Origin: Candidatus Lokiarchaeum ossiferum
Lineage (GTDB): Archaea; Asgardarchaeota; Lokiarchaeia; Sigyniarchaeales; Promethearchaeaceae
Assembly: GCA_025839675.1 (NCBI GenBank)
Contig: CP104013.1
Span: forward strand, 4,860,001-4,892,000
Length of the DNA stretch: 32,000 nucleotides
Reading direction: 5' to 3'
The position numbers and the translations under genes were made by a program. The notes beneath the pieces are model-generated. The model ran no database searches. It had not been told where the DNA came from and worked only from the letters and a program-made list of their open reading frames with translations. Below, piece by piece: positions 1 to 21,524 of this stretch (positions are counted from its first letter, which is position 1; every line of letters begins with the position of its first letter).

Positions 1-1615
1 CGGTAATTTGTCCATTATCTTCTCCATCATTAGTGTCTGCGGCTAAAATCATTGCGGAATTTTGTAAATAACTCCCTCCTGGTGCGACGATATCAGGTTT
101 AGCTACATCGTCTGAATCATACCAAAACTTACCTTGACCATCCAAATTTTCACCTTGACTACTATAATAGGTAATTTGATCTTGATCATTTGTTGCTCCT
201 ACAACAATTGCCTTTTGATTTTTTGCAAGCATATTCATGTTGGAATTGATTCCGTTATTGCCTGCTGCAATAATCACCATTGTACCATTATCAATGACGT
301 TATCTATCAAACTTGATATTTTTTGAGCAAGTAATTCATCCATATCGAAATTTCCAACGCTAAGAACCGTCACAAAAATACGATATTTCGTATTGTTATG
401 CCAGACCCATTCTAAAGCAGAAAGTAAATCTGATGAATATCCTAGCCCAGTCGAATTTAAAACTTTTAATGAAGTTATTTTAGTTTCTGGGGCAATACCA
501 GCGAAATTTGCAAATCCCTTTTCATAATTTTCAGGAGTAAAGGTAATATTAAGTTGGAGATCAAATTGAGGGTTTTTTCCCAGTTCTACTGAATATACAA
601 TGTAGATGTCAAATAAACCCACTTTTTTACTTTCATCAAAAGGTCCAGAAGTATCCCAAGATACGTCTAAAGAATTAGATGCGCTAGTATTAATTAATTG
701 ACCATCTTTATAAAATTTTAAATTATATTTCGAGAGATCGATTATATTACTCATCTTTCCCTTAATTTCAAGGTTATCTAATGCTTCAGAGTCCATTTCA
801 AAGGAAGCTAATTTAAGAGAATAGTCTTGGGGAATAATGTGATGAGGGTAAAAAAGATCAAAATGATTAAACCTACCTCCAACGCTTATATAATATCCAT
901 CCCCGCTGTGATTCATCTCAAAAGATTTATTTGCAGATCCAACTGCAATGGATGCAATGCTAGTTCCATGTCCATTAGAATCAATTGGTTCTGTCTCATT
1001 TTCTTCTGAAAAATCTTTCCAACCAATAATAGATCTAGAGAAGTTTAAGTCTCCAAACCCATTTTCAAATCCAATGAATGCATCATCAATACCAGTATCT
1101 AAAAATGCAATCGAACCATTAGATGTTCCATTAAATATCATATTATCTCCTACTGTTGCAGGATAGATATTCAGCTGGTCATGAACTGTATTCATCTGAG
1201 TTTGGATCATTGAATCTTCTACAACTGTCATATTAGGGGTTTGAGATGTAAATAATTTTAAGTTACCTTCAGAATTATTTATCTGGCCAGCAAAACCAAC
1301 GATATTTTCCCAAGGACCTTCCATCAAAATACCCCCACAATTGGAAAAGTTGCTTAAAATGTCATTCATATTAGATTCCATAGAATCAAACAAAAAGACA
1401 TATCTATGAGATTCATTATCATAAACTGAGTTATCTTCTAAAATACTCTGAGATTGAATTTGTGTTACTGGAGTTATTATCTCTTCACTTAATTCTATAT
1501 TTTTGTTGGTGGAATAATCCAATGCTTCTGTCAAATCAAAAATTGGTGTTGAAAAGAGAATCATTACAAATATTATGATTATATTCATAGGCTTTTTTTT
1601 AGACAATGCTTTCAT
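1..1615 (-). CDS. Subtilisin-like serine protease (peptidase S8), N-terminal part; the 3' end lies beyond the left window edge
   Basis: Absent from the ORF track because it runs off the window. My minus-strand translation from ATG 1615 (alternative in-frame ATG 1588) gives MKALSKKKPMNIIIIFVMILFSTPIF (basic N-terminus plus hydrophobic signal/anchor). It continues with AFLDTGID (catalytic Asp motif), DSNGHGTSIASIA (His motif), GIAPETKITSLKVL and IIAAGNNG (oxyanion Asn). A ~120-aa insert lies between the His motif and GIAPETKITSLKVL. The Ser motif is not reached. The start overlaps the stop of the upstream gene in an ATGA (1612-1615). Confidence 0.85.
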   Translation of the reverse strand, partial: MKALSKKKPMNIIIIFVMILFSTPIFDLTEALDYSTNKNIELSEEIITPVTQIQSQSILEDNSVYDNESHRYVFLFDSMESNMNDILSNFSNCGGILMEGPWENIVGFAGQINNSEGNLKLFTSQTPNMTVVEDSMIQTQMNTVHDQLNIYPATVGDNMIFNGTSNGSIAFLDTGIDDAFIGFENGFGDLNFSRSIIGWKDFSEENETEPIDSNGHGTSIASIAVGSANKSFEMNHSGDGYYISVGGRFNHFDLFYPHHIIPQDYSLKLASFEMDSEALDNLEIKGKMSNIIDLSKYNLKFYKDGQLINTSASNSLDVSWDTSGPFDESKKVGLFDIYIVYSVELGKNPQFDLQLNITFTPENYEKGFANFAGIAPETKITSLKVLNSTGLGYSSDLLSALEWVWHNNTKYRIFVTVLSVGNFDMDELLAQKISSLIDNVIDNGTMVIIAAGNNGINSNMNMLAKNQKAIVVGATNDQDQITYYSSQGENLDGQGKFWYDSDDVAKPDIVAPGGSYLQNSAMILAADTNDGEDNGQIT

Positions 1616-4600
1616 GATCCATTCTCCTCCGTTGTGAGTTCTTCTAAGAATTCTTTTAGATTTTTCTTTTTCCATGCAATATCTCTCAAGGATTGGCCAA
1701 AAAGGAGAGATTCCCTTCTCTCTAATTCTAAATCTTCCCTTGAATATTGTGATTTTTTATAATATGTAAATCCGATTACACTCGCTCCCACAATTATAGG
1801 AAGAATTATAATCAAAATGGATTCAAAATAAGATTGCCTAACCATTATTGTCATAACTGGGCTTTCGATAGTCCTTTTATAAATATAACAATAGTTTAAT
1901 TCTGCAGGGTTGATCTGATAGATTCCATTTTTGTTTAAGGTTCGTAAATGATATGTGAAGGTGATAGAATCACCCGGTTTTAACAATTCATAATTTCTAA
2001 TCATACTTCCATCTTCCAACGTAAATCCTTCTGCACTATAACATCGTGTATCATCGATTGTAAAATTACCCATATCAATATTTCCAGTATTGATTAAGGT
2101 TACAGTAATAGAAATGATATCTCTATGCACTGCATTCACAGTATTTAGATCTTTTGACAGAGATGCATTAAAAACTCCTAAATGGAGCAGATTACTGAAT
2201 GACTGCTTCATAAATTTTGTTTCTATTTTTGAATTTATTGTCAATTGAGGGAGTGTGTATCCTCTATAGTTATCTTTCCGATAACTTAAAGTGATTAATC
2301 GGTCTTCTGATGGGACTAAAGAAGATATCCAGATTAAATCGGTCTCATTTAGAAGTGTAAATCCCGTGATATTAGAGTTAAGAGGTATTTCAATATCTAA
2401 GAATGTTGTGGGTTCCAAATTCTTTATTCTAATTTGAACTTCAAATACATCATTTATTTCTGGCGCATTTTGGTCAAAATTGGAGATATATTCAATGCTT
2501 AGGGCATGTTTATGCGGAGTATCACTCGCTGAAAAGTATCTCACAGGTGCGGAGAGGTATTGGTTATTACTCTGTACTCTTTTTATGGTGGAATTTTCCA
2601 TTCTTTCTTCATCTTGCCAAGTTACTGTTGCACTTGGTAAAATTCTGCTATTAGGAACAATAAAATCGAAGGTAATATTTTCATATGAATCTCCTGCATT
2701 TAGAAAATCAAAATAAATGAACAATTTATCACCTATTAATGTAAAATTTCCTGCTGTTGCAACTAAATAGTAACTTTCATCTGTAAATACTTCGGCAATA
2801 TTGTTAATTTCTTTGATTTTACCTGGTAAATCCAGTTCTAAGCTTATATTTTTTGCAGAAGTCATCCCTACATTTGAGATCGATATATTGTAGGTCATTG
2901 TTTCTCCAATTTTTTTATTATATTCATCCATATGCACGAGGGTATTGAGAGAACTTCTATCATCAGTATTTAAAATAAAACTATTAGAATGACTTAGATA
3001 TTGTGTTCCTAACTCCGAACAATATTGAATAATCGCTTGATCATGAAAGATTTCTTGATTGAGTCTCGTTTGAAAAAGCAGCTGAAAATAATCAATATCT
3101 ACTGTAAATTTTTCAGAATTTTCAAATGTAACACGAAGAATTATCGAATAATTTTGATTTTCTCGGTAAAATTCTGAAAGTTCATAATTAATGCTAGAAA
3201 TTGTGAAGTTAATTTTTTCAGGCTCATTTACAGAATAAATTCCAGGAATTGAGATAAATTCATCCCCTTCCTCCCCAGTATCCTGATCAAAATTATAAAT
3301 CTCCAAAGATAAAGTTGTTGAGTTTAATGAATTTTTAAAATACGCTTCAATACCTAACCCATCCAAGCTATTACTTGAATTAATATCAAAACTACTTTCA
3401 TTTTGGAACATAAAATATGTTTGAATTTGATAGGAAGACCCAATTTTTTGAGATTGAAGATTTAAGGTCGTCGAATCATTTTCTTGATATGTTCCAGAAA
3501 TATAAGTATTATCAATTATCGAACCGTATGAAATGACGGGCGATATCCCTTCTATTGAAGAAATATTTAGTGAATTGAATGATTCAAATTGATCTTCTAA
3601 ATTTCCTGTTGCTGCAGATATAGGAATTGTAAAATTATCTCCAGGCATAATTTTCCAATTAGATGGATTAAAAATACTGTCCGAAGAATTAAAGGATTGA
3701 GGATTGTTTGCAATGGTACCAAATGCCTCTGGATTGTCTTCTAAGATTTCTGCAAATTCTGGAGAATAAGGATAGATCATTTCTAAATTTGTTAGAATAT
3801 TTGTCATTTGAGGGTATGTAATATCATAAGTGCCCGAATTATTTGAATCTATATTGAAAAATCGAGGTTCTTCATTGTGAAAAAGATCAGTTAAATTATA
3901 TCCAAGGGTTTCAGTAGTATGAATAATGGCATCACTATCATAACCCAAAAGCTCAAAGAAATTTTGATTAATATCTAAAAGAGTGATTTCTTTTGTTGGA
4001 TCATTAGTTATACCTAAATTGGAAATATCTCTTTTTTGACCCCAAATTTCATCCAATCCACGATTTTCCACAAATATTTCGATTGATGGTTGTTCATCAT
4101 CAAATAATACATTAGATGCGTTTCCTTCTGCTATTTTTTTTTCAATATATAATGAAGGTTCATTTATAATAGGGCGATAGATACAAACAAATTGATCCAG
4201 TGGGGCGATCGTTGAACCTGGAATTCCGAAATTACTTCCAATTCCGCCTAATAGGCTAAGAAAATTAATCGGATCTGAATCATTTGCCAAGTTTTGGACC
4301 GTTGTTGTCAATCGCGTCAAAGATTCGTTTGTTGACCACTGAATCTTGAAGGAATAATTCTTAAAACTCGATAAATCAAATTCATCATCAAATAAAAATA
4401 GAATACTTTCTATCCGTTGGAGATTATAATCTTCAAAGTCAAAGTAACTCGGTTGAGTGGAAATGATTTCAGATGAGATAAACCCAATGTCAATTAAACT
4501 AAGTGAGATTCCATCCATGGAATTGAAACATTTTGAAGAAATTGCTAAATTTTCTCCTTTATAATTGAGTGCTGTAAATAGATCAAATTTATATTCATGT

Positions 4601-5604
4601 TCCCCCACTTCTGAAAATCCTTCTTTATTGCCTTCGTATTGAACTGAATAAATTACAACGTTATCCAGTTCATCTAAATAGGATATTGTGTTATCGTCTT
4701 CTTCATCTTCTTCCTCAATTTCTTCTTCTTCTGGAGGTAATAATTCATTGGGTGAAATATTATCATTGGATGGCCCTTGGGATGAACCTCCACCATCCAG
4801 TCCAAAATTAAATAGTGATGATGAAGTATCAATTGCTGATAGATCCATATTAATTGGAGTATTATAGGGAGCAATTGCTTCTAATTCATTTTCCAACATC
4901 GAATAATGTTTCAAGAATAGAAGACTTGAGCTGAGATGCTGATTATCTAGATAATTTTGGCTTAGAAGTCGATTATCATCGAAAGCACCCCAGTATCCAT
5001 CTTGAGGGGTATTTGAAATTGTCGTTTCAAAATAATTTTTCCAATTTGGGGTGGCACCGTAAAAAGGATAGAAATATCCTCGTTGAGAATCTTCAATAAC
5101 ATCATGAAACAAGAGATCTACTTCAAATAAATCCTGAAATATATCTAACGCTCGGGTTTTACGGGTCTGAACTAAATCGTAGGTGGATCTATTGTCATAA
5201 TATAAAAAGCCCGTTAAGGATAAATATGAGAGTTCAATGGTCTTCAAATCATTGGTGGTTGCCAATTCCGGATTAAGTACTGGTGAAATTCCATTAGAGA
5301 TAGAAAAATAGAATGAACTCCGGAAAAAAGCTGGATCTGAAAGATCGACTCGTTCAAAAATATTTGTGTCATTTGTGATATAAGATTGACGCACTAAGCT
5401 CTCTTTACCTGCTATATTTACAGCAATTTGTTCCGCAAATAATTCATTACCTGATATATCTGATGTTTTTGGGGATTGATGTCTTTCACTATCCTTTACT
5501 GGAATAATTTGTTCAATATTTTCTGTAATTGCAATAGAACTCAATGGAAATATGCATAAGACCATCAAAAGGATTCTAAGATATTTTAATTTGGTTGATT
5601 TCAC
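1612..5604 (-). CDS. Large (1330 aa) extracellular, C-terminally membrane-anchored, probably heavily N-glycosylated surface protein (S-layer/adhesin-like); function unknown
   Basis: GTG start at 5604, preceded by the SD-like GGAGGGG (minus strand, 5615-5621). Signal peptide MKSTKLKYLRILLMVLCIFPLSSIA. One C-terminal TM helix (ILIIILPIIVGASVIGFTYY) followed by a ~50-aa charged tail. Many N-x-S/T sequons. A G/S/P plus poly-acidic linker (GLDGGGSSQGPS...PPEEEEIEEEDEEDDN). Three CARDB/DUF11-like beta-sandwich signatures near the C-terminus (YNISISNVGMTSAKNISLELDLPG, FEVQIRIKNLEPTTFLDIEIPL, ISITVTLINTGNIDMGNFTIDD). No catalytic motif recognised. Confidence 0.7.
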   Translation of the reverse strand: MKSTKLKYLRILLMVLCIFPLSSIAITENIEQIIPVKDSERHQSPKTSDISGNELFAEQIAVNIAGKESLVRQSYITNDTNIFERVDLSDPAFFRSSFYFSISNGISPVLNPELATTNDLKTIELSYLSLTGFLYYDNRSTYDLVQTRKTRALDIFQDLFEVDLLFHDVIEDSQRGYFYPFYGATPNWKNYFETTISNTPQDGYWGAFDDNRLLSQNYLDNQHLSSSLLFLKHYSMLENELEAIAPYNTPINMDLSAIDTSSSLFNFGLDGGGSSQGPSNDNISPNELLPPEEEEIEEEDEEDDNTISYLDELDNVVIYSVQYEGNKEGFSEVGEHEYKFDLFTALNYKGENLAISSKCFNSMDGISLSLIDIGFISSEIISTQPSYFDFEDYNLQRIESILFLFDDEFDLSSFKNYSFKIQWSTNESLTRLTTTVQNLANDSDPINFLSLLGGIGSNFGIPGSTIAPLDQFVCIYRPIINEPSLYIEKKIAEGNASNVLFDDEQPSIEIFVENRGLDEIWGQKRDISNLGITNDPTKEITLLDINQNFFELLGYDSDAIIHTTETLGYNLTDLFHNEEPRFFNIDSNNSGTYDITYPQMTNILTNLEMIYPYSPEFAEILEDNPEAFGTIANNPQSFNSSDSIFNPSNWKIMPGDNFTIPISAATGNLEDQFESFNSLNISSIEGISPVISYGSIIDNTYISGTYQENDSTTLNLQSQKIGSSYQIQTYFMFQNESSFDINSSNSLDGLGIEAYFKNSLNSTTLSLEIYNFDQDTGEEGDEFISIPGIYSVNEPEKINFTISSINYELSEFYRENQNYSIILRVTFENSEKFTVDIDYFQLLFQTRLNQEIFHDQAIIQYCSELGTQYLSHSNSFILNTDDRSSLNTLVHMDEYNKKIGETMTYNISISNVGMTSAKNISLELDLPGKIKEINNIAEVFTDESYYLVATAGNFTLIGDKLFIYFDFLNAGDSYENITFDFIVPNSRILPSATVTWQDEERMENSTIKRVQSNNQYLSAPVRYFSASDTPHKHALSIEYISNFDQNAPEINDVFEVQIRIKNLEPTTFLDIEIPLNSNITGFTLLNETDLIWISSLVPSEDRLITLSYRKDNYRGYTLPQLTINSKIETKFMKQSFSNLLHLGVFNASLSKDLNTVNAVHRDIISITVTLINTGNIDMGNFTIDDTRCYSAEGFTLEDGSMIRNYELLKPGDSITFTYHLRTLNKNGIYQINPAELNYCYIYKRTIESPVMTIMVRQSYFESILIIILPIIVGASVIGFTYYKKSQYSREDLELERRESLLFGQSLRDIAWKKKNLKEFLEELTTEENGS

Positions 5605-5614
5605 TTTTCATTTT

Positions 5615-5621
5615 CCCCTCC
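5615..5621 (-). promoter_or_regulatory. Shine-Dalgarno-like sequence of the 1330-aa surface protein gene
   Basis: The minus strand reads GGAGGGG 10 nt upstream of GTG 5604, inside the 17-nt spacer after the permease stop. Confidence 0.5.
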
Positions 5622-8486
5622 CTATAATGTTTCCCTAAATATTTCAATTAGGTTTTTATTCCGAAGTTTTCTCATAATTAACTTCAACCCTAAGTAAAGT
5701 GATAATATTGACACCCCGTAAATAATTCCAACAATATCCCATGGTATTTTTATCATTTGGGGTGTCTGTGTAAATAATGTCATGTTTTCAGATAATCCTA
5801 AAGCCATAATTGTTCCAATTATTCCTCCCGAAGTAGAGGATGCCAATAGAATAATCAAGTTTTCTACTAAAAACAAATTTTCTACTTCACGACCATGCAA
5901 ACCTAAGGTTCTTAAAATTCCTATTTCACGAGTTCTCTCTAAAATAGATGAGTAGGCAGAAGTCAAGAGTCCAAAGATAGCAATAATAATTGTTCCTAAT
6001 TGAATTAACAAAAACATATATTTGATTACTAAAAATTCAGACTCGGCGTATTCGATGTCCTCGCTTGTTCTATCAATTCTGAGATTTTCTTCTTCAAAAA
6101 TAGTTTCTAAATTTTGTTCAATTATGGTGTGATTATATCCTTCTTTGACTTTAACAAAAATCTTGTCTACAAATGCATCATCTCCGCCTGGAATATTTAA
6201 ACATTTTATATAATTTATATTGGACATGATAACTCCTCCTGTTCCTCCTCCAAAAAGGCCTGCTTCTCTAATCCGGGATAAACCTGGACAATTTTTAAGA
6301 ACACCTACTACTTTACAAATATATGCGCTTTCTTCTGTTCCTCGAGTGAAGGTTAATCTTGCAAGATCATCTTTTCGGATTTTTAATTGACTTGCAGTTG
6401 ATGAAGATATAATGATGTTAATGATCTCTTGATTTTCCTCAAAAATCTGGCTGAATGCTTCATCTTTGTTTCCAGTGGCAAAAACCAAATGAGACTGCAT
6501 CTCTGTTGAGATTGTATCCTTAAAATTTTTATCTATTCCATAGAGCCATATATTGGTGGATGTAAAATCGATATAATCCCCCATGGTGACTCCAAAATCT
6601 TTATTTTCTTCTGAGTAAATATTTTCAAGATCATTTGTTGATGCTAGTAAGGATGATGCTCTCTCAATACCCTCGACTTGCATTATTTGCTCTTGCAATT
6701 CAACAGTGGGTGCATTAATATTATAAGTGCGGGGGCGAATCACAATATCAGATCCACTTTCATAGGCAATTAAGCCTCCAATTTGATTTACTTGAATTTC
6801 CACCATACTAGTCGCGAACATGATGAAACTGAAACTAAGTATAAACATAATAATTGTGCTTAAATTTCGACGTTGGTGGCGATGAATTGTGATTTTAACA
6901 ATATTCATAATTTTTTGCATCAAAGGTTCGAAAATCATCACCAGCAATTTTAAAAAGAAGGGCATTATTCCAACTGCCATTAAAGATACTCCAACTAAAA
7001 ATGTAACAAGTGTTCCCACTAAGATACTTGCTAATAATGCAATTTTAAGTGACAGCATTATTTTTGGAAGTAAAAAGAATACAAAACCACTGTTGGCAGC
7101 TACAAAGAATCCAAAGACAATCAATTTTACATTTGCACTACCTTCTTTTTTAATTTTATATAATTCATCACTATGACGATAAGGGTTTATGGATTCTACT
7201 ATGCTCATTCGCATTACTTTTACTGCGGGGGCTATTGATACAATTAGACTAACGCCGATACCGATTAAATAACTCATCAAAATGGATGTTGGTTGTGCCA
7301 CAAAAACAATATTTGACGCATAACCGTCAGGTATTTCTCTTTCTAACAATGTAAGCGCGACTTTATCAACAAATATTCCTGCGCCGAATATTCCCAATGT
7401 GGTTCCAATTAAAATTATGAGCATTGCTTGCAAAACAACTAACTTTATGTTGTAACTCTTTCTGGCTCCTAAAACTCGATTGATCCCATATTCTCGTATT
7501 CGCTCTTCAACCGATGTAGATAAAATTCCATTTATTAAAATTCCGCTGATCAACATTGAAACAAATCCAATTACGACAAATAATATATTCATTCCCAATG
7601 AGAACATTTCAGAGACATAAAGTAATTCTAACTTTGGATACTCAATATTCCATGGATCCAATCCGATTAATAATTGCATGTCTGCCCCTAATTTAGTTAT
7701 TAAAGCTTCTGTGTTTTCAATATCTCGAATATCATAAATATCTTCACCATTTTTGAATATCATGACGAGTGAATTTGTTTTATTAACCCAATCCATTTCT
7801 CTATATGCAACATTATAGAGTTGATTTGCTGTCTCACCCCACCAACTCATATCTACGACTATATCACTTTCGCGTCCAAGTGGAAATTTCAAATCGGAAT
7901 TAAATCTGCTTAGAATTGTTAAATTTACAGAAGAATTTAACCCTGGTAAAAAAATATTAAATATTTGTCCTTCAGTTAGATTAAATCTCTCCGCAAATTC
8001 CATTTCCACTAAACAACTATTCACCGGGATACCTTCACTTAAATTAAGGGTTGGGGATATATCTATGAATGAACCGAACGAAATATCCTCTTCAAGCTTT
8101 ACATCAAGCGCCCCAAGTTGAGCCCACCTTTCATCTTCCATCGGATTTGATATTGACCCATTTGTTCGGCCCCACATTGTTGTTCTTGGGAGAAAATGTT
8201 CTATTTCGTCAAATTCCTCATGAATTAAGGCTTTAATATTGGGATAATCAAAATAATCTGATCTATTTTCTTCTTCCCCTGCATAATGTCGAACCGAGAG
8301 TCGTAGGTCTTGGTTTCCGCAATCTGCCGTTAAAAAATCAATAAATCCGTATGAAACAGAATCTGTTATAAAAGAGACGGAGGTAAGCAAGAATAAACTA
8401 ACTGCAATCCCCATTACTCCTAAAATTGTTCGAGTTTTTTGTCTAAATAAATCTTTAAAGGCGTACGAATAGAGAAATGAATCCAT
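5622..8486 (-). CDS. ABC transporter permease, fused double FtsX module (MacB/LolCE/FtsX type VII ABC family) with two large extracytoplasmic domains
   Basis: Two FtsX-type signatures: RIREYGINRVLGARKSYNIKLVVLQAMLIILIGTTLG and RTREIGILRTLGLHGREVENLFLVENLIILLASSTSGGIIG. Each follows a ~250-aa non-hydrophobic segment flanked by TM helices. I prefer ATG 8486 (MDSFLYSYAFKDLFRQKTR..., with GAGGA 7 nt upstream) over the track's TTG 8504. Confidence 0.85.
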   Translation of the reverse strand: MDSFLYSYAFKDLFRQKTRTILGVMGIAVSLFLLTSVSFITDSVSYGFIDFLTADCGNQDLRLSVRHYAGEEENRSDYFDYPNIKALIHEEFDEIEHFLPRTTMWGRTNGSISNPMEDERWAQLGALDVKLEEDISFGSFIDISPTLNLSEGIPVNSCLVEMEFAERFNLTEGQIFNIFLPGLNSSVNLTILSRFNSDLKFPLGRESDIVVDMSWWGETANQLYNVAYREMDWVNKTNSLVMIFKNGEDIYDIRDIENTEALITKLGADMQLLIGLDPWNIEYPKLELLYVSEMFSLGMNILFVVIGFVSMLISGILINGILSTSVEERIREYGINRVLGARKSYNIKLVVLQAMLIILIGTTLGIFGAGIFVDKVALTLLEREIPDGYASNIVFVAQPTSILMSYLIGIGVSLIVSIAPAVKVMRMSIVESINPYRHSDELYKIKKEGSANVKLIVFGFFVAANSGFVFFLLPKIMLSLKIALLASILVGTLVTFLVGVSLMAVGIMPFFLKLLVMIFEPLMQKIMNIVKITIHRHQRRNLSTIIMFILSFSFIMFATSMVEIQVNQIGGLIAYESGSDIVIRPRTYNINAPTVELQEQIMQVEGIERASSLLASTNDLENIYSEENKDFGVTMGDYIDFTSTNIWLYGIDKNFKDTISTEMQSHLVFATGNKDEAFSQIFEENQEIINIIISSSTASQLKIRKDDLARLTFTRGTEESAYICKVVGVLKNCPGLSRIREAGLFGGGTGGVIMSNINYIKCLNIPGGDDAFVDKIFVKVKEGYNHTIIEQNLETIFEEENLRIDRTSEDIEYAESEFLVIKYMFLLIQLGTIIIAIFGLLTSAYSSILERTREIGILRTLGLHGREVENLFLVENLIILLASSTSGGIIGTIMALGLSENMTLFTQTPQMIKIPWDIVGIIYGVSILSLYLGLKLIMRKLRNKNLIEIFRETL

Positions 8487-8500
8487 TTTGCTTTCCTCAA

Positions 8501-9529
8501 TCAATCATCGAGATTTGATCTTTCCTTGGATATGTATAAAACACCGCTGTTGATTTTTCCTTTGATATCTTCCTTCTCAACTAATTCTGCCATTAGATCA
8601 TCAAAATGTAATGGGAGATTGCTGATAATATCTGGATTTATTTGTTCTCTAATTTTAGAGAATCTTATCTCATAATTATGGTCTTTAATAGACTCGCGAA
8701 CTGTTTTTAATATTTCAACTTCACATTTTTCCTTGTATTTTGCTTGTAAATCCAATCTCGCAGAGCGCATTTCTTCTGTCTCTTTTAATCCCGAAACTTC
8801 GAGTCCTTTAACTATTTTCCCATCTCTAATATGGACAATACGCGTGCAATATTCTGAAACTGCTGCATCATGGGTTGCAGCAATAAATGTGGCTCCTTTT
8901 CTATTTAAATCTCTTAATAAGTTAAGAATTTCAATTCCTGTTTTTGAATCTAAATCACCCGTAGGCTCGTCCAGCATAACAATGGACGGATCATTAGCAA
9001 AAGCACGGGCAATGGCAACTCTTTGTTGTTCTCCTCCTGATAACTCGGATGGTGTGTGGTGTGCCCGTTCATCTAACTTTACTAATTTTAAAAGTTCCAT
9101 TGCCTTGCGTTTACGTGCTCTTTTAGATAATGTACCTTGAAAATGTAATGGGATCATAACATTTTCCAATGCGCTCAAAAGGGGTAAGAGATTATAAAAT
9201 TGGAAAACATAACCGATCTTATCTCGTCGTAAATCCGCAAGTTGATTTTCATTCAATCGGCTCATGTCCTGTCCATCAAGATAGATTTTACCCCGAGTGG
9301 GATAATCTAAACCACCAATTAAGTTGAGGAGAGTTGTTTTTCCACATCCGCTAGGTCCCATTAGCCCGGTAAATTCTCCCGGTTTAATTTTTAAATCGAT
9401 TCCTCGAAGTGCAGGAACGGCAGTAGCCCCGAGAAGGTAAGTTTTATGCACTCCTTCTACTAAGATTTTATAAGGCGTATTGATGGTTGAAATATCATCA
9501 GTTTTACTAATTGGTTTTTTGATTACCAT
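8501..9529 (-). CDS. ABC transporter ATP-binding protein (MacB/LolD/FtsE-like) with a ~110-aa C-terminal extension
   Basis: Walker A GPSGCGKTT, ABC signature LSGGEQQRVAIARA, Walker B IVMLDEPTGDLD and H-loop AATHD. It lies directly upstream of the FtsX permease. Residues ~235-342 extend beyond the canonical NBD. Confidence 0.92.
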   Translation of the reverse strand: MVIKKPISKTDDISTINTPYKILVEGVHKTYLLGATAVPALRGIDLKIKPGEFTGLMGPSGCGKTTLLNLIGGLDYPTRGKIYLDGQDMSRLNENQLADLRRDKIGYVFQFYNLLPLLSALENVMIPLHFQGTLSKRARKRKAMELLKLVKLDERAHHTPSELSGGEQQRVAIARAFANDPSIVMLDEPTGDLDSKTGIEILNLLRDLNRKGATFIAATHDAAVSEYCTRIVHIRDGKIVKGLEVSGLKETEEMRSARLDLQAKYKEKCEVEILKTVRESIKDHNYEIRFSKIREQINPDIISNLPLHFDDLMAELVEKEDIKGKINSGVLYISKERSNLDD

Positions 9530-9869: not shown

Positions 9870-11411
9870 TTAAATAAATTGCAGTACATCTTTTTCAATA
9901 AGTGAGAAACCTTGTGCATCTTCAGCCAAAATTGTTTCTAATAATTTCACCTTCAGTGATTTTATCTGCAATTGGCTTTCCATGCTAAGAGCATTTTCAT
10001 CAACTTGATTAAGTTTACTGTATATTCCTTTTGCCTCATTTAAATCAAAGGGAGTAATGTCTGACGTTATTTTCAAATACTTTGCAACAATGGATTTAAT
10101 GAGATCAACAGCATCAGGAATAAAATCCAAAAATTTCGTGGCATTGCCTGTTTTCATAAAACTCGCTAAATAAGGCTCATAATTCTGCATAAAATCTTCA
10201 AACATTATCGAAAAATCTTCCTTAACAAACTCCATATCCAAATCTGGGTGGGTGAAAATTGTTAAAGTTAGATTTTTTTTCGAGAGTGAAGACATTTTTA
10301 TATTCCCTCCTTGAACTCGAAAGCTAGATAGATCTTGAACATTTATTTCTTCAGCAAATTTAGACATTGCATTCAAAAACATTGGAATTAATTCTAAATC
10401 AAATTGGGGATTATCGGCTTTATTCAATGCGTCTCTCAAAGAACATTTCTTTGTTTCTGCAACAATCAACGTTTTTCCATTAGAATCACTGATCATAATG
10501 CCGTAAATTAATTTTTCTGGTTCAAATTTCTGGTCTTCACTCACTGGGGCTGCTTTTTTGCTAGCCAGATCCTTATTAGAGAGATCCAAGAATGATTTTA
10601 AGACTTGTTCGTAATATACCTCACCTTTTTCTGTTAAATAGACCAGGGTTTGTTTATCCATTTTTTTAGTTCTTAGAAAATTTGCTGTCTCATAAGAGCT
10701 AATTAAGGTTTGTAAAGTTGATTTTGAAGTTTCAAGATTCGATATCAGCCGTTCTAAACTTAAAACTTTTTGAGTTTTCAATGTATTGAAGAGATTAATA
10801 TTTAATTGAATAAGTTTTGTGTCCATTTCACCTTCATTATCAAGTCCCGATTTTCTGAAAACATCTACAAATGCATTGATTGTTGTGTAAAGATGTTCTG
10901 GCTTAATGGAAGTATAATATATGTTTAAATCTGTTTTGTAGTTCTTTTTTATTTCCTTTTTATAAGCTTCAATATGATCTTTAATTTTTAATAATTGAAT
11001 TTCATCAATTAAATCAATTTTATGGATAAGAAAGAAAATATTTGCTTGTTTGGATTGAACTGGTTGTAAAGCAATTGCTTTTCTTATATAATCAACAGTG
11101 ATTTTTGGAGCATGCCTTGAATCCAAGATATTTAAAATTATATCACTATCATTGAAAACATTTTTATCTTCAGAAAACCATCTTTCTTGTTCTTGACCTG
11201 CTAAGTCAAAAACACCTAAGTTTTGTAATAAATTATACGAATAGTTTTCAAATCCATAAGTTGGTTCAATAGGATTTTCTAACAACTTAAATAATGATTC
11301 TCCTTCAAATAACCATTTCCGGATAGTTGATTTTCCAACACCCGAAGGTCCAACAAATACAATTTTTTTTGACAGTATAGATCTCTTCCTTTTAATTGAA
11401 TGTAATAACAA
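9870..11411 (-). CDS. Rag/Gtr-like small GTPase with a central winged-helix-like segment and a C-terminal roadblock/LC7-like domain (513 aa)
   Basis: G1 GPSGVGKS (aa 21-28), G2 region EPTYG, G3 DLAGQE (aa 69-74). G4 is HKID rather than NKxD (aa 130-133, in IFFLIHKIDL). G5 region is YYTSIKPEHLY. HKxD and TSI..E.LY match my recollection of RagA (IFCLVHKMDL, FRTSIWDETLY). Residues ~216-270 (LSLERLISNLETSKSTLQTLISSYETANFLRTKKMDKQTLVYLTEKGEVYY) look like a wHTH. Residues ~300-400 show a beta-alpha-beta-beta-alpha roadblock-like pattern (LIYGIMISDSNGKTLIVAE...LTLTIFTHP). Confidence 0.72.
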   Translation of the reverse strand: MLLHSIKRKRSILSKKIVFVGPSGVGKSTIRKWLFEGESLFKLLENPIEPTYGFENYSYNLLQNLGVFDLAGQEQERWFSEDKNVFNDSDIILNILDSRHAPKITVDYIRKAIALQPVQSKQANIFFLIHKIDLIDEIQLLKIKDHIEAYKKEIKKNYKTDLNIYYTSIKPEHLYTTINAFVDVFRKSGLDNEGEMDTKLIQLNINLFNTLKTQKVLSLERLISNLETSKSTLQTLISSYETANFLRTKKMDKQTLVYLTEKGEVYYEQVLKSFLDLSNKDLASKKAAPVSEDQKFEPEKLIYGIMISDSNGKTLIVAETKKCSLRDALNKADNPQFDLELIPMFLNAMSKFAEEINVQDLSSFRVQGGNIKMSSLSKKNLTLTIFTHPDLDMEFVKEDFSIMFEDFMQNYEPYLASFMKTGNATKFLDFIPDAVDLIKSIVAKYLKITSDITPFDLNEAKGIYSKLNQVDENALSMESQLQIKSLKVKLLETILAEDAQGFSLIEKDVLQFI

Positions 11412-16035: not shown

Positions 16036-16301
16036 CGAATCTTTTTTAAATGCAATATTTTTGTTAAGATATTTCTAATTAAAATTCTTATCAAAAAATC
16101 ACTCTTTTTCTTAAAATTTAAGTATATAATCAATTGGTTCTAAATTCTTTATGAAAGTGGTTTAAAGGAAAAATGGTAGACTGTTGATTATCATTTTTAA
16201 TCATCTATTTAAATTGAAATTTAAAGTCTCCCTTCAATATTTAAAAACCCATCCTTAAATAATAGTTCATCTCCAAAAAAAATAATTTGTATCAGGATAG
16301 A

Positions 16302-17639
16302 ATGGAAATGGTAATTGGATTAGTATTAACTCATTGGGACACCCAGTTAGGTCCTTTAATAATGGCAAGATATCCAAATAATTTTCAAGTATCTAAAGAT
16401 GAAATCAACAAAATATTAATGACACATTCAATTTCTAAAGAGATGACAAATGAAATAGTCGAAATTCGTTTGAAAGAAAAAATTTTTCTCAGTTATTGTC
16501 CAAAAAAGCAAATTCCAGTCAATGGATATTCTATGATGATTATTGTTCTCCATTTAAATGAAGAATTATTGTTTGATGGAATAAAAAATCAATTAAATGA
16601 AATTGGTGAAAATTTATTCAATCGTTCTGGTAATGAGCAAATTAAAGAATTTCACCAGTATGCATCCAAATTTTTTCAAAAAAAATCATCACGAAAAATA
16701 TTATTTATAGGATCTAGCGCAGTAGGTAAAACTTCAATTAAAAAACTATTTTTTGAGGGAATACCTTCTGAATCTCTTTTGGATTTGCCCCTTGAACCAA
16801 CTTATGGATTAGTACAATTTAATTATGATTGGCTAGATTTGGATCTTGGTGTTGCAGATCTGGCAGGTCAGGAAATGGACCATTTTTTAAACGAATCATT
16901 CGAATCGGAGATTGATCCATTTGATTCTGTTGATGCAATTCTCTACATCTTCGATTCAACTTATTGGGATACAAATTCTCGTGAAATCGTACAACATATA
17001 CAGAAGATTCTAGACATAAATACAAGTAGAGATCTAAAATCCCAGTTTTTTGTTTTTTGTCACAAACTGGATTTAATTCCAACTTATGATCAACAATCCT
17101 TCAAGAATGAAATAAAATATACCTTGCCAGCATCGGTTCAGTCTAATCTCTTTTTTACAAGCATTAAATCTGACATGCTCCATCAACTAATTAGATCAAT
17201 GCAAGTAGTAATTGGTACCCTCTCACCACAAACCAATTATCTCGAAGAAATATTATTTGAGACTATTTCAGAAAAAAGGAATACTGCAGTAATTATTTTA
17301 AATGAAAAAAGAATTTTACTAAGTGCTTCGACTGAAGATTTTAAAATAATTAACTATTCTCACATCTTTTCATTCATTTCATCAATGAATTTGCTTCTCG
17401 ATGATTTCAAAAGTGAATTCACTCAATTACAACTTAAAGGAAACCGTTTTAATTTGCATTTTTCCTCGATAGAATGGTTGTCAGAGGGTGAATGTATCAT
17501 TTTAATTAGTGAATGCTTATCTTTTAAGGAATTAAGTCTACTAAAAGAGAGTATTCAATATAGTTTAATATATTTAGAAACTTCCTACGAAAAATCTTCA
17601 GATAATCTAAACATAGATCAAAAAAATTCATCCAAATAA
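16302..17639 (+). CDS. Three-domain protein: folliculin-like longin domain, Rag/Gtr-like GTPase and a Rag-CTD-like roadblock domain
   Basis: The track starts at TTG 16287. I prefer ATG 16302 (MEMVIGLVLTHWDTQLGP), by analogy with the N-terminus of the 163-aa paralogous domain at 30544. GTPase motifs: G1 GSSAVGKT (16710-16733), EPTYG, DLAGQE (16857-), HKLD (17061-17072, in FVFCHKLDLI) and FFTSIKSDMLH. The C-terminal ~115 aa alternate helix and strand in the same order as the RagA C-terminal roadblock domain (LEEILFETISEKRNTAVIILNEKRILLSAS...FTQLQLKGNRFNLHFSSI...ECIILISEC...). Confidence 0.72.
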   Translation: MEMVIGLVLTHWDTQLGPLIMARYPNNFQVSKDEINKILMTHSISKEMTNEIVEIRLKEKIFLSYCPKKQIPVNGYSMMIIVLHLNEELLFDGIKNQLNEIGENLFNRSGNEQIKEFHQYASKFFQKKSSRKILFIGSSAVGKTSIKKLFFEGIPSESLLDLPLEPTYGLVQFNYDWLDLDLGVADLAGQEMDHFLNESFESEIDPFDSVDAILYIFDSTYWDTNSREIVQHIQKILDINTSRDLKSQFFVFCHKLDLIPTYDQQSFKNEIKYTLPASVQSNLFFTSIKSDMLHQLIRSMQVVIGTLSPQTNYLEEILFETISEKRNTAVIILNEKRILLSASTEDFKIINYSHIFSFISSMNLLLDDFKSEFTQLQLKGNRFNLHFSSIEWLSEGECIILISECLSFKELSLLKESIQYSLIYLETSYEKSSDNLNIDQKNSSK

Positions 17640-17651
17640 AGGTAAATCCAA

Positions 17652-18314
17652 ATGAGCATTAATAAAAACAATTCAAAATTAAAAAAAAATTCCGATATTG
17701 CAGTTCCCAGAGAAGTTAAAAATAAGGTAACTTTGCGAATTGAAAATGTCGTAGCTAGCGTAAAAGTGGGCACTTTTATAGATCTCAATAAACTATTAGA
17801 AAAATATAAAGATATTGAAAAGAAAGAAAATTTTCCAGGATTAGTCGTAAAAATGAAAAATCCTAAGGCAACCATATTGATTTTCTCTTCTGGTAAGATG
17901 GTGGCCACAGGTGTTCGACTTGTCAAACATCTTCCCATAGTTGTGGAAAAAGTCGTCAAAAAGATGGAAAATGCAGGGATTGAAATTGAGATGGAACCAG
18001 AGGTAAAAATTGAAAATATCGTTGTGCGTGGAGATTTCCATCAAACTATAAATCTCGATTTAACCTCCTTATCTTTAACTCGGGCAATTTATGAACCTGA
18101 AGTTTTTCCTGGATTAATTTATAAAATACCTGATCCAAAAATATGCTTCCTCATTTTTAGTTCAGGTCGAATTATCTGTACAGGTGCGAGTGATGAAAAT
18201 GTTATCCGAAGTTCAGTAAAAAAACTTGCTTTAGATTTAAAACGGCAAGGTGTACTCGGAAATACTAAAAAAAAAGTAGGTCAATTAGATCTTGATTTAC
18301 TGGACTTGTTCTAA
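17652..18314 (+). CDS. tbp: TATA-box binding protein (TBP) with a ~30-aa basic N-terminal extension
   Basis: Two TBP repeats: IENVVASVKVGTFIDLNKL...NFPGLVVKMKNPKATILIFSSGKMVATG and IENIVVRGDFHQTINLDLTSL...YEPEVFPGLIYKIPDPKICFLIFSSGRIICTGA. Acidic/hydrophobic tail LDLDLLDLF. The start is 12 nt after the stop of the upstream Rag-like gene. Confidence 0.93.
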   Translation: MSINKNNSKLKKNSDIAVPREVKNKVTLRIENVVASVKVGTFIDLNKLLEKYKDIEKKENFPGLVVKMKNPKATILIFSSGKMVATGVRLVKHLPIVVEKVVKKMENAGIEIEMEPEVKIENIVVRGDFHQTINLDLTSLSLTRAIYEPEVFPGLIYKIPDPKICFLIFSSGRIICTGASDENVIRSSVKKLALDLKRQGVLGNTKKKVGQLDLDLLDLF

Positions 18315-18663: not shown

Positions 18664-20337
18664 TTATTCTCCTTTATCCAAATTCTGTGTCTGGTTTTCC
18701 AAGTCACTCAAAGTAGATTCGCGTTCTTTAATTATTTCTTCAATATGTGTCTGAATTTCATTCTTTTCTTCAGTTTTTTGTGATATTTCATGTTCTTTTT
18801 TTTCAATATCGCTTTCCAATTCAAAGATGCGGTCTTGGAGCTCAGTTAACATTATTTCCAAATTTAATTTCTCATTTAATACCTTTTGCCTATCATCATT
18901 AATTGTTTTTATCTGAGCAGTGAGCATTTTGTTTTTTTCATCTGTTTCCTTAATGGATTGTGCTAATAGATTATTCTCTTCAAAATATTCATTAATAGTT
19001 TCTCTTAATTTTTCCATTTCTTCCCCATGGTTATTCTCAATTTGGACTTTCTGCTCTTTTTCTGATTCTATAGCTGCTAAATTCTTTATCAAATCTTCGT
19101 TGGCATTAGTAAGTTTATTAATGATAAATTGGAATTTTTCTTCTTTTTTCTTGGAAAGTTGGTTAACTTCATTTAACTGAAAATCAAGTTTTTCTTTTTG
19201 TTTTTGAATTTCTTTAATTTTTGTATCTTTCTGTGCGAGTTGGAGAGTTAAACTATCAGTAACCAACAAAATTTGATCTTGTAATCGAGAGTTTTCTTCT
19301 TCTAAGTGATCATATTTTTGAATTTTCTGCCGAAGTTCTATGATTTCCGTTCTTAACTTTTCTAAATTTGGAGTGTTATCAATTTGATTTGGTTGTTCTG
19401 AAAGCAAATCTGCATCTTTTGGTGACATTTGAGGGGTTATTAATGGTGCAGGTGCCGGTTTCGGCTTTGGAGTTGATTTAATTCCATCTCCTGAAAGTGG
19501 TATTGGATCTGGATTGCTTGGGCTAACATTAGCTGGAAGAGGCCTTCCAAATAAATCTCTTTTAATAGTGGCAGATTCTTGTTGTTCTGCTTCAGGTCTA
19601 GGATTAAAATCAATAATTGTTTCTAAATCTAATTCATTTTCAATCTCATCTTGGATTTTTTTTTGTTTAATACTTTCACGAAATTTAGCCACTGTTTCTG
19701 GTTCTTGTTTTTCTTCCTCATTATCATCGAGGGGTGATTTTCGGGGATGAAATTCTGTTTCACCTGTTCGTATTGCTGGTAGATTTTTAATCTGAACTGG
19801 ATCCTTTCCATTTTTAATTTCAGTAATTATATATTCCATTTGACGTTCATGAGCTAAAATCAAACCCTGTTCTTCAATATCCACTATATTTATATAAAAT
19901 GCAAATTGGCCTTTGACAATTGTATCATATACAATTATTTGGGGCTCAATTGGATTTTTGAACACGTATTTCATATTTTCCATTGGAATTAATTCTAATC
20001 GTAATCCTGCCATCAGTTTTTGGAGATATTGAAGCAATTCAGCACGAGGTTTTATTATTTTGGAGAATTCACTTGATAGATAAGATACTATATTTGGAAA
20101 ATCTTTTGGAAGGATACATTTTCCAGTGTTTTCACTTTTCTCAATTGCCTTATCATAATCTTTTTTCTTTCCTTTTACTTTTTTTACTGGGGGTTCCAAT
20201 ACAATAAATAATAAACCACTACCTGATCGAGTGTTGTATCTTTCAATTTTATATCCAAAACCTGGTGCTGGTGTTGAATTCGATGCTATACGGACATAAA
20301 GGTGATGTATTCGGCTGATTGCGGTAGTTAGATCCAT
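18664..20337 (-). CDS. Hypothetical protein: ~190-aa N-terminal globular domain, acidic/Pro-rich linker, ~230-aa C-terminal coiled coil
   Basis: 557-aa ORF. The linker reads PSNPDPIPLSGDGIKSTPKPKPAPAPLITPQMSP. The C-terminal half is K/E/Q/L-rich with heptad character (LRTEIIELRQKIQKYDHLEEENSRLQDQ...). No TM segment and no recognised catalytic motif. Confidence 0.6.
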   Translation of the reverse strand: MDLTTAISRIHHLYVRIASNSTPAPGFGYKIERYNTRSGSGLLFIVLEPPVKKVKGKKKDYDKAIEKSENTGKCILPKDFPNIVSYLSSEFSKIIKPRAELLQYLQKLMAGLRLELIPMENMKYVFKNPIEPQIIVYDTIVKGQFAFYINIVDIEEQGLILAHERQMEYIITEIKNGKDPVQIKNLPAIRTGETEFHPRKSPLDDNEEEKQEPETVAKFRESIKQKKIQDEIENELDLETIIDFNPRPEAEQQESATIKRDLFGRPLPANVSPSNPDPIPLSGDGIKSTPKPKPAPAPLITPQMSPKDADLLSEQPNQIDNTPNLEKLRTEIIELRQKIQKYDHLEEENSRLQDQILLVTDSLTLQLAQKDTKIKEIQKQKEKLDFQLNEVNQLSKKKEEKFQFIINKLTNANEDLIKNLAAIESEKEQKVQIENNHGEEMEKLRETINEYFEENNLLAQSIKETDEKNKMLTAQIKTINDDRQKVLNEKLNLEIMLTELQDRIFELESDIEKKEHEISQKTEEKNEIQTHIEEIIKERESTLSDLENQTQNLDKGE

Positions 20338-20855: not shown

Positions 20856-21524
20856 CTAAAAAAAGAGTTGATCATCATCAAATGGATCATCATCATTAAC
20901 GCGAATAAAAAGATCATTCTCAAAAATATCTGAAATAAGATTTTTTAACGAGTTTTTAACCATATCCATTGATTTCATACCCAATCCAATGATTTTACTA
21001 TTAGAAAAGATTAAAAATGTCCCGCCTGTCGTTGGTTTGATAATTGCTGCTGGAAATTGTTCAGGTTCATATAAGCAATTTGTTAAAGTTAAACAAGCCA
21101 TTTCTAAATTAATTATTTTTCCTAATTGGGACATTACTACCAGATTTTGAATCTCTGTTGTCATTTCTGAAAATTCGAGCTTACCCTTATTACGCAAGTG
21201 ATCGATTATTTTTAATCGTAAAGGCTCAATAGTTTCTCTTTTTTTAATACCTGTTAAAATTAATTTACCATTTTTAAATAAAATAACTGAAATTTCATCA
21301 ATTTTGAATAAAACGCATGGAAATCTATTCAGTCTTTTGACAGTAATCCGCTTTTCTAGTTCTTCGAAATTTATTTTAGATTCAGGATCTGGACGCGTCA
21401 TCTTCGCTAAACACACAATATTAATTATTTTGTATGGAAAATTGGTTGCATCGTCTGTTAAAGTTTCTTCTAATGATCCAGGATAAACATCGATTTGATT
21501 TGGGGGTAATTCTATAAGTTCCAT
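20856..21524 (-). CDS. Divergent TATA-box binding protein paralogue (TBP-like, 222 aa)
   Basis: The two-repeat TBP pattern is retained but diverged: IINIVCLAKM...NRFPCVLFKIDEISVILFKNGKLILTG and IQNLVVMSQLGKIINLEMACL...YEPEQFPAAIIKPTTGGTFLIFSNSKIIGLG. All four Phe positions equivalent to the DNA-intercalating Phe residues are present. Acidic N-terminus and an acidic tail DDDPFDDDQLFF. Confidence 0.8.
   Translation of the reverse strand: MELIELPPNQIDVYPGSLEETLTDDATNFPYKIINIVCLAKMTRPDPESKINFEELEKRITVKRLNRFPCVLFKIDEISVILFKNGKLILTGIKKRETIEPLRLKIIDHLRNKGKLEFSEMTTEIQNLVVMSQLGKIINLEMACLTLTNCLYEPEQFPAAIIKPTTGGTFLIFSNSKIIGLGMKSMDMVKNSLKNLISDIFENDLFIRVNDDDPFDDDQLFF

Follow-up and report, generated by a model that had tools for sequence, protein, structure and literature searches.

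The subject of this report is a gene of Candidatus Lokiarchaeum ossiferum that lies within a stretch of 32,000 nt, referred to as the window (coordinates count along the window, residue numbers count from the ATG at 16302). Its product, denoted LGR (longin-GTPase-roadblock), combines a longin domain, a Rag-type G domain and a roadblock domain similar to the C-terminal domain (CTD) of Rag proteins. AlphaFold2 models, Foldseek, Pfam and PDB profile searches agree on this single-chain arrangement, which an earlier note on the same DNA had proposed. With moderate confidence, we read LGR as a canonical Rag/Gtr-type GTPase that has gained an N-terminal longin of the class found in GTPase-activating protein (GAP) complexes, the longin being the non-catalytic half of a two-longin platform. 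Rag GTPases and longin GAPs (GATOR1, FLCN-FNIP, C9orf72-SMCR8) constitute the core of eukaryotic lysosomal nutrient signalling.

The class of proteins as such is documented. Tran et al. 2024 surveyed 74 small GTPases of the strain MK-D1 and list the LGR architecture among them; their Supplementary Fig. 6b labels proteins as LGR, LG, GR and GXLX, and their Supplementary Fig. 8 contains AlphaFold2 dimers of MK-D1 proteins formed through roadblock (RB) or longin domains (PMC10933270). Since its 2024 publication for MK-D1, the architecture is no longer a novelty. The treatment of LGR proteins by Tran et al. consists of one sentence and supplementary alignments, and it does not extend to the subtype of the longin, its WD-G(P) motif and lack of an arginine finger, or the gene linkage. 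Rodrigues-Oliveira et al. 2022 described L. ossiferum as enriched in Gtr1/RagA GTPases and NPRL2-like longin domains (PMC9834061), and roadblock proteins are common in Asgard archaea (PMC10933270). New beyond the published class are the WD-G(P) motif, the operon-like pairing of LGR and GXLX genes, and the occurrence, elsewhere, of a longin with GP motif and arginine beside a Rag-like GTPase. The added value is a subtype defined at the level of motifs (WD-G(P), no arginine) together with gene-linkage clues to partners, not a new class of system.

Rag/Gtr affinity and the three-domain chain

The G domain and the CTD of LGR belong to the Rag/Gtr family. The top Pfam family for LGR is Gtr1_RagA (PF04670; 67.5 bits, E = 1.5e-18, cutoff 22), followed by SRPRB (28.2 bits) and Arf (25.3 bits), and Gtr1_RagA is matched by 31 of the 33 full-length family members. 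In a search of the family profile against all PDB sequences the best E-values are those of Gtr1 (5e-19) and RagA (6e-18), with RagC at 1e-7, a Rab-like protein at 4e-6, SR-beta at 4e-4 and Arf at 0.02. The alignment with RagA pairs LGR residues 128-400 with RagA residues 7-277, the alignment with Gtr1 reaches residue 258-288, and both extend into the CTD. A full-length AlphaFold2 model, for which a family alignment of 18 sequences served as input, has a mean predicted local distance difference test score (pLDDT) of 82.7 and a predicted template-modelling score (pTM) of 0.68. Submitted to Foldseek against the PDB, this model retrieves Rag/Gtr chains as its 37 best matches, nearly all over their full length, with E-values down to 2.4e-18 and, for the best chains, target-normalised template-modelling (TM) scores of 0.70-0.74 over ~300-317 columns.

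The motifs G1 to G5 are complete in LGR, namely GSSAVGKT (residues 137-144), T167, DLAGQ (186-190), HKLD (254-257) and TSI (286-288), and their residues are invariant or nearly so across 33-38 members: H254 occurs in 32 of 38, while K255, D257 and T286 occur in all 38. The DxxGQ motif retains its Gln, and the nucleotide-binding and catalytic motifs are intact. HKxD and TSI, which the earlier note had named as Rag hallmarks, are indeed confined to RagA, RagC and Gtr1 among the reference GTPases compared here, whose sequences were checked against PDB entries.

A neighbour-joining (NJ) tree, a distance method applied to 44 G domains (178 columns, 200 bootstraps), joins all Asgard sequences, that is, LGR proteins, G+roadblock forms of ~300 aa and the ~510-aa class, with RagA, Gtr1 and RagC in one clade with 88% bootstrap. 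Arf, Sar1, SR-beta, Ras, Rab, Ran and the outgroup MglA fall outside this clade. The sister group of the entire Asgard set is formed by the eukaryotic Rags, not by RagA specifically. Crude as it is, the tree agrees with the profile and fold evidence on the Rag affinity.

It is very improbable that the G domain is an Arf/SR-beta-like archaeal GTPase with a superficial likeness to Rags. Such an identity would fit the Pfam matches to Arf and SRPRB, which lie above their own thresholds (Arf is matched by 28 of 33 members), the statement of Tran et al. 2024 that this class is structurally close to Arf too (PMC10933270), and the NCBI/UniRef name "ADP-ribosylation factor-like" of a 98%-identical protein. 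However, Gtr1_RagA scores ~40 bits higher, the E-values of the PDB profile search are ~15-17 orders of magnitude apart, among the references HKxD and TSI occur in Rags only, the contiguous CTD is sequence-homologous to the RagA CTD, and the Rag clade has the bootstrap value given above. An Arf/SR-beta identity was rejected on the Pfam scores, the PDB profile search and the tree; neither the profile search nor the tree groups the domain with Arf, SR-beta or MglA, in keeping with the Rag-type assignment made previously.

The likeness of the C-terminal third to the RagA CTD, also part of that assignment, is borne out by the AlphaFold2 topology of residues 309-425 (Table 1) and by the continuation of the profile alignment into the RagA CTD. 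The statement that the three modules sit on separate polypeptides in eukaryotes is wrong, as the G domain and the roadblock CTD are one chain in RagA and Gtr1; the family profile aligns continuously along the single PDB chains of both proteins, from the G domain into the CTD. Since every Rag already joins these two domains in one chain, the longin is the sole addition to the Rag layout. Searched in isolation, the N- and C-terminal thirds have no matches in Pfam even at E<=10, and NCBIfam contains no model for LGR, for the longin-like protein encoded at 30544 (hereafter the 30544 protein) or for the GXLX paralogue of the window. For both outer thirds, AlphaFold2 predicts longin and roadblock topologies, respectively, and not the disorder or unrelated folds that the earlier note had considered as the opposite outcome.

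Eukaryotic RagA/B, Gtr1, RagC/D and Gtr2 share with LGR the HKxD and TSI motifs, an extended switch II region and the contiguous roadblock CTD, but have no N-terminal longin. Closer in lineage are the crystallised lokiarchaeal proteins LokiRagO (PDB 8yl2) and LokiRagM (8zla, 9m28), which likewise combine an Asgard Rag-like G domain with a further domain. The RagA-like LokiRagO is among the top Foldseek matches (target-normalised TM 0.69-0.71, 20% identity). Unlike LGR, LokiRagO and LokiRagM comprise ~290-320 residues and are not three-domain proteins; with 16-20% identity they are distant paralogues. We note that the PDB entries of 2024-2026 describe LokiRagO as a tetramer (8yl2) and LokiRagM as a monomer (8zla, 9m28), that 8yqg and 9jq8 were also among the entries seen, and that the crystal structures of these years include a Roadblock-Longin protein and an MK-D1 roadblock. 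A literature search for LokiRagO/LokiRagM returned no paper in the collection searched.

The reading frame of LGR is uninterrupted, with possible starts at 16287 (TTG), 16302 (ATG) and 16308 (ATG) and the stop at 17637-17639; the chance of 445 stop-free codons is ~1e-12 at the stop-trinucleotide frequency of the window (0.060). NCBI lists the same protein, at 100% identity, as NEF87_004167 of Ca. Lokiarchaeum ossiferum; it is annotated there as 443 aa from 16308 and as hypothetical or Arf-like only. The start at 16308 is slightly better supported than 16302, because most homologues begin at the equivalent of M3 (first residue in 32 of 38). All motifs quoted by the earlier note were located in the product: VIGLVLTHWDTQLGP at residues 4-18, IPVNGYSMMIIVL at 71-83, FCHKLDL at 252-258 and TSIK at 286-289. 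That the fusion is an artefact of misassembly, a missed stop or a frameshift is extremely improbable, given that the same sequence lies within a 6.0-Mb complete-genome contig and that the identical architecture recurs in 37 full-length relatives from many 50%-identity clusters and independent metagenome-assembled genomes. The G+C content of the window (~29-34%) and the presence of TBP genes are as expected for the source archaeon. A scan for bacterial-type promoters and terminators near the gene gave 27 sites, with 26.7 expected, and 0 terminators; for an archaeon such a scan is uninformative.

The longin domain and its missing arginine

In the AlphaFold2 model, LGR residues 4-125 have the topology b-b-a-b-b-b-a-a, which lacks a helix at the N-terminus and ends in two helices. 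Modelled alone, the domain keeps this topology (pLDDT 88.8, pTM 0.85). The distinction between longin and roadblock topologies used here follows PMC10933270. A roadblock fold of the N-domain was ruled out by the predicted topology and by the order of the Foldseek matches. The six best PDB matches are GATOR1 NPRL2/NPRL3 longins (query-normalised TM 0.55-0.67, E = 2e-4 to 9e-4), and the next are a lokiarchaeal longin crystal structure, yeast Npr proteins, C9orf72/SMCR8, Lst4, a DENN protein, VAMP7 and Ykt6. The predicted structure thus classes the N-domain as a longin whose nearest structural neighbours are GAP-complex longins, by modest margins.

Few positions of the N-domain are conserved among 38 full-length relatives, namely W12 (34), D13 (33), G17 (34), P25 (38) and Y76 (33). 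Three of these belong to the motif W12-D13-x3-G17-P18 at the b1/b2 junction: LGR reads HWDTQLGP where C9orf72 reads YWDNILGP (C9orf72 sequence checked against PDB 6lt0_C). A GP motif is present at the b1-b2 junction of FLCN, NPRL2, SMCR8 and C9orf72 and absent from FNIP2 and NPRL3; the junction contributes to the catalytic pocket of longin GAPs, and in C9orf72 the residues W33-D34 are essential for GAP activity (PMC12290439). The same source describes the arginine fingers of longin GAPs as well as longins with GP motif and arginine in Asgard archaea, and in the known longin GAPs two longins form a heterodimer to which the partner contributes the arginine (PMC12290439).

No arginine is found at the corresponding site of LGR. 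Reference positions of the finger are FLCN R164, NPRL2 R78 and SMCR8 R147. In the b4-b5 loop, hhalign places PVNG of LGR opposite ARGG of the 30544 family, so that V73 faces the Arg, and this loop has no conserved Arg position in the alignment of 38 family members. In a manual comparison, not aligned by a tool, M78 stands opposite NPRL2 R78 (YSMMIIVL and YSRNALLF, respectively; NPRL2 sequence verified). The absence of an arginine at the LARG-equivalent position, reported by the earlier note, is thereby corroborated, and its description of a non-catalytic partner longin stands, given the absent arginine finger.

Two of its other labels fare less well. "Folliculin-like" captures the structural class of the GAP-complex longins and is too specific within it, as NPRL2/NPRL3 are the best structural matches and the profile comparison with FLCN gives E = 0.58. 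"FNIP-like" is not retained: LGR has the GP motif and no DENN module, and Lst4, the FNIP homologue, appears only at rank 22 or beyond in Foldseek. The analogy fits poorly because FNIP2 lacks GP (PMC12290439), whereas LGR has W12-D13...G17-P18, the pattern of C9orf72. A comparison of the LGR longin profile with the single C9orf72 sequence gives E = 3.3e-4 with a probability of 38% over 44 columns (hhalign), the comparison with NPRL2 gives E = 4.5e-3 with a probability of 7.7%, and no GAP-longin profile match is significant. In Foldseek, C9orf72 chains reach query-normalised TM scores of 0.44-0.58. LGR shares with C9orf72 the WD motif four residues upstream of G(P), but it has no DENN module and its longin is followed by the G domain. 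As judged from these motifs, the GP-class, arginine-less and WD-bearing pattern appears to match C9orf72 among the six eukaryotic GAP-complex longin proteins, in comparisons that are not decisive. In more general terms, the longin GAP complexes (NPRL2-NPRL3, C9orf72-SMCR8, FLCN-FNIP) resemble LGR in the longin fold and in G(P) at the b1-b2 junction; they differ in being separate regulators with DENN or other C-terminal modules, whereas the longin of LGR is fused to a GTPase.

Candidate partners and proposed mechanism

Table 1. Features of LGR and of selected neighbouring genes in the window
Feature	Position	Strand	Basis or remark
LGR open reading frame (ORF)	16302..17639	+	445 aa from 16302, 443 aa from 16308
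Longin domain (residues 3-126)	16308..16679	+	AlphaFold2 full-length and domain-only models, Foldseek
W12-D13-x3-G17-P18 motif	16335..16355	+	b1/b2 junction; spacing equals C9orf72 W33-D34...G38-P39
b4-b5 loop PKKQIPVNG (residues 67-75)	16500..16526	+	Arginine-finger site of FLCN and 30544 protein; no Arg
Rag/Gtr-family G domain (residues 129-307)	16686..17222	+	Pfam, PDB profile, conserved motifs, NJ tree
C-terminal roadblock domain (residues 309-425)	17226..17576	+	AlphaFold2 topology a-b-b-a-b-b-b-a, hidden Markov model alignment, Foldseek
Probably disordered tail (residues 426-445)	17577..17636	+	pLDDT <50; variable or absent among homologues
GXLX Rag-like paralogue, 513-aa ORF	9870..11411	-	Pfam Gtr1_RagA 5.3e-14 on residues 15-176
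Longin-like candidate (30544 protein), 163 aa	30544..31035	+	HYHHKLGP, with the GP motif, and DPxARGG conserved in its family; R83 candidate arginine finger
KaiC/GvpD-like P-loop ATPase, 489 aa	14051..15520	+	Pfam
Ras/Rab-like GTPase, 166 aa	15535..16035	+	Pfam Ras 3.8e-31; 14 nt after ATPase gene

Two genes of the window encode candidate partners of LGR. The first is the Rag-like paralogue at 9870-11411, a type for which we use the class label GXLX of Tran et al. 2024 (PMC10933270). It consists of a Rag-like G domain, a middle winged-helix-like region, a longin-like domain and a helical tail, the C-terminal part having been assigned by reading. In 7 of 7 assessable loci, the LGR gene has a GXLX homologue at a distance of less than 6 kb. 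In four loci of more distant relatives (L004, L005, L006 and L008; LGR identity 32-34%), the GXLX gene is immediately downstream of LGR, with gaps of 2, 5, 1 and 5 nt, respectively, and three Rag-like genes form a cluster of a ~290-aa form, LGR and GXLX (L004 4576-8864, L005 6001-12341, L006 3003-7298, L008 2145-8505). Among the close relatives L001 (Harpocratesius), L002, L003 and L011, the GXLX gene is located ~4-5 kb upstream on the opposite strand, as in the window. In MK-D1, the LGR protein WP_147663503.1 follows the GXLX protein WP_147663498.1 by five accession numbers, and the two genes of the window are also five genes apart; from this numbering only, the pairs may be orthologous. The repeated tight pairing is the best available clue to the partner of LGR, and it parallels the heterodimer principle of the Rags. 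The longin-like region of GXLX was considered as a donor of the arginine and rejected, its corresponding loops (read by eye) having neither GP nor Arg.

The second gene encodes the 30544 protein, a candidate catalytic-type longin and candidate catalytic partner as judged by its motifs. R83 is conserved in at least 90% of the alignment of its family, which comprises 55 matches; those with organism names are lokiarchaeal. The protein resembles FLCN DSLARGFQRWYS around R164 (FLCN sequence verified; local hhalign E = 0.058), and its match to the Pfam family Folliculin (E = 0.022) is below threshold. It had previously been called a paralogue of the LGR longin, which overstates a similarity of E = 0.004 over 45 aa in BLASTP and of E = 0.026 with a probability of 1.9% in hhalign. 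The 30544 protein appears to exemplify the stand-alone Asgard longins with GP and Arg (PMC12290439), which come from the same lineage as LGR, have a predicted b1-loop-b2 with LGP and align in register with LGR. They differ from it in their length (~160-220 aa) and in carrying the Arg of ARGG, whereas the LGR longin has no Arg and WD instead of HYHH before GP. In three genomes, the distance between the LGR gene and a homologue of the 30544 gene is 4.5, 5.6 and 12.9 kb. A separate case is the locus L007, in which a 220-aa longin with GP (DHILGP) and ARG (ENARGK; 5313-5975, + strand) is encoded 17 nt upstream of a 292-aa Rag-like GTPase (5992-6870, + strand). Judging by these motifs, the pair appears to be an operon-like split version, with a catalytic-type longin beside a Rag-like switch.

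The following mechanism is proposed. LGR would act as a GTP/GDP switch and would form dimers by way of the roadblock CTD, in the manner of Rags and in line with AlphaFold2 predictions for the MK-D1 relatives. Eukaryotic Rags are obligate RagA/B-RagC/D heterodimers on Ragulator/EGO upstream of TORC1, and Rags are the GTPases on which GATOR1 and FLCN act. The likeliest dimer partner of LGR would be the co-encoded GXLX paralogue of ~510 aa. The arginine-less longin of LGR may serve, like C9orf72 or NPRL3, as the non-catalytic half of a longin-longin platform, and stimulation of GTP hydrolysis on a Rag-like G domain would then require an arginine-supplying longin in trans, for instance the 30544 protein.

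Several observations weigh against this mechanism and the class assignment behind it. The Foldseek E-values of the N-domain are modest (2e-4 or weaker), and generic longins (VAMP7, Ykt6) and roadblocks are also listed. The longin sequence has no family match in Pfam (E<=10) or NCBIfam, and compared with PDB sequences, whether alone or as a profile of 34 sequences, the N-domain retrieves no longin and only spurious designed proteins. The P of the GP motif varies within the family (P/S/T/A), and the hhalign likeness to C9orf72 reaches a probability of only 38%, over 44 columns and against a single sequence. The NJ tree is crude in its number of sequences, its number of columns and its distance method. 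The linkage between LGR and 30544 genes is loose and falls within a general block synteny among relatives, which makes it weak evidence. Finally, we infer all three of CTD dimerisation, choice of partner and placement of the longin.

The modest structural scores leave some room for a longin that is a generic module for dimerisation, recruitment, membrane targeting or adaptor function, takes no part in GTP hydrolysis and resembles GAP longins at the level of the fold only. We regard this as fairly unlikely. In its favour, the scores of SNARE longins (VAMP7, Ykt6), of a DENN longin and of roadblocks come close to those of the GAP longins, no significant sequence-profile link to any GAP longin exists, and Tran et al. 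predict longin-longin homodimers for longin-GTPases (PMC10933270). Yet the top six structural matches all come from GATOR1 NPRL2/NPRL3, WDxxxG(P) is located exactly at the b1-b2 junction, the catalytic-pocket site in longin GAPs, and longins with GP and Arg are encoded beside Rag-like GTPases in the same lineage.

The earlier note had also suggested a self-contained unit. In such a unit the longin would act in cis on the G domain of the same chain, serving as an internal GAP or guanine nucleotide exchange factor (GEF) in the way MglB acts on MglA, and would make an external partner unnecessary. The fusion itself, the very short linker between the longin and b1 (residues 126-128, AlphaFold2) and the conservation of the WD-G(P) motif are compatible with such a unit, and many systems use roadblock/longin dimers as platforms for GAP or GEF activity (PMC10933270). 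The MglA-MglB system resembles LGR in its general logic, a small GTPase with a regulator of roadblock or longin fold; it differs in that the LGR G domain does not group with MglA and in that the LGR N-domain has longin, not roadblock, topology. Self-sufficiency is argued against because the longin lacks an Arg finger. Moreover, the known longin GAPs are heterodimeric with the arginine on the partner (PMC12290439), and the close operon-like pairing with a second Rag-like gene points to hetero-assemblies. Overall, a self-contained unit seems quite unlikely. In Ras-fold proteins, the G domain starts on the face that points away from the switch regions. With a linker of ~3 residues attached there, the pocket of LGR itself would be a less likely target of the longin than that of a partner, as the trans mechanism proposed above would have it.

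A more far-reaching version of that mechanism holds the LGR longin to be the archaeal counterpart of the arginine-less GAP subunit (nearest C9orf72), pairing with the longin of the 30544 family as an ancestral two-longin GAP on an LGR-GXLX dimer. This version is rather doubtful. If true, longin GAPs would have partnered with Rags, and longins would have divided into catalytic and non-catalytic types, before eukaryotes arose, and the non-catalytic longin would first have existed fused to its client GTPase. Within 21 kb, a cultured Asgard archaeon encodes a longin-fused Rag-type GTPase, a second Rag-like paralogue and a candidate stand-alone arginine-finger longin. This purifiable set of proteins makes a pre-eukaryotic longin-GAP regulation of Rag-like switches experimentally approachable.

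Distribution of the family and other genes of the window

The profile search for relatives of LGR yields 777 matches at E<=1e-3. Architecture was assessed in the best 150 of these and in earlier matches, among which at least 49 have a longin together with a G domain and at least 37 are full-length LGR proteins of ~420-450 aa. Counted as sequence clusters, at least 37 have the LGR architecture. Every member of the LGR family that bears an organism name is assigned to Promethearchaeota, Loki lineage. For distant members the cluster names are few, being either "Promethearchaeota" or KEGG-style labels such as "Ras-related GTP-binding protein A/B". The LGR proteins of MK-D1 (Promethearchaeum syntrophicum), WP_147663503.1, WP_147663355.1 and WP_147663364.1, have the same domain order, the same Rag-like class and the same phylum. 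Forms without a longin interleave with LGR forms in the NJ tree. One of the proteins without a longin, P0013, comprises 305 aa with G domain and roadblock, and its gene, located centrally on a 219-kb contig, has no longin gene as a neighbour. LGR is a lineage-specific elaboration within the lokiarchaeal Rag-like radiation, not a direct ancestor of the eukaryotic Rags.

On the upstream side of LGR, the order of KaiC/GvpD-like ATPase, Ras/Rab-like GTPase and LGR on one strand (Table 1) is kept in the four close relatives L001, L002, L003 and L011. Further downstream in the window, two TBP paralogues (17652-18314, + strand, and 20856-21524, - strand), 2.5 kb apart, flank the gene of a conserved coiled-coil protein. 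One of the two is canonical (Pfam TBP 2.6e-45) and the other divergent (3.5e-20); both are syntenic in L003, and L001, L002 and L011 retain the divergent TBP only. The coiled-coil protein (18664-20337, - strand, 557 aa) has a structured N-terminal portion, which a Pro-rich linker joins to a long C-terminal half resembling a coiled coil; it matches no Pfam family. Its gene adjoins LGR also in L001-L003 and L011 (30-35% identity). At the other end of the window, a 1330-aa ORF (1612-5604, - strand) contains a TRAP-beta-like domain (PF05753, 5e-09, residues 1149-1239) and DUF11-type repeats, and adjoins the genes of an FtsX-like permease (5622-8504) and an ABC ATPase (8501-9529).

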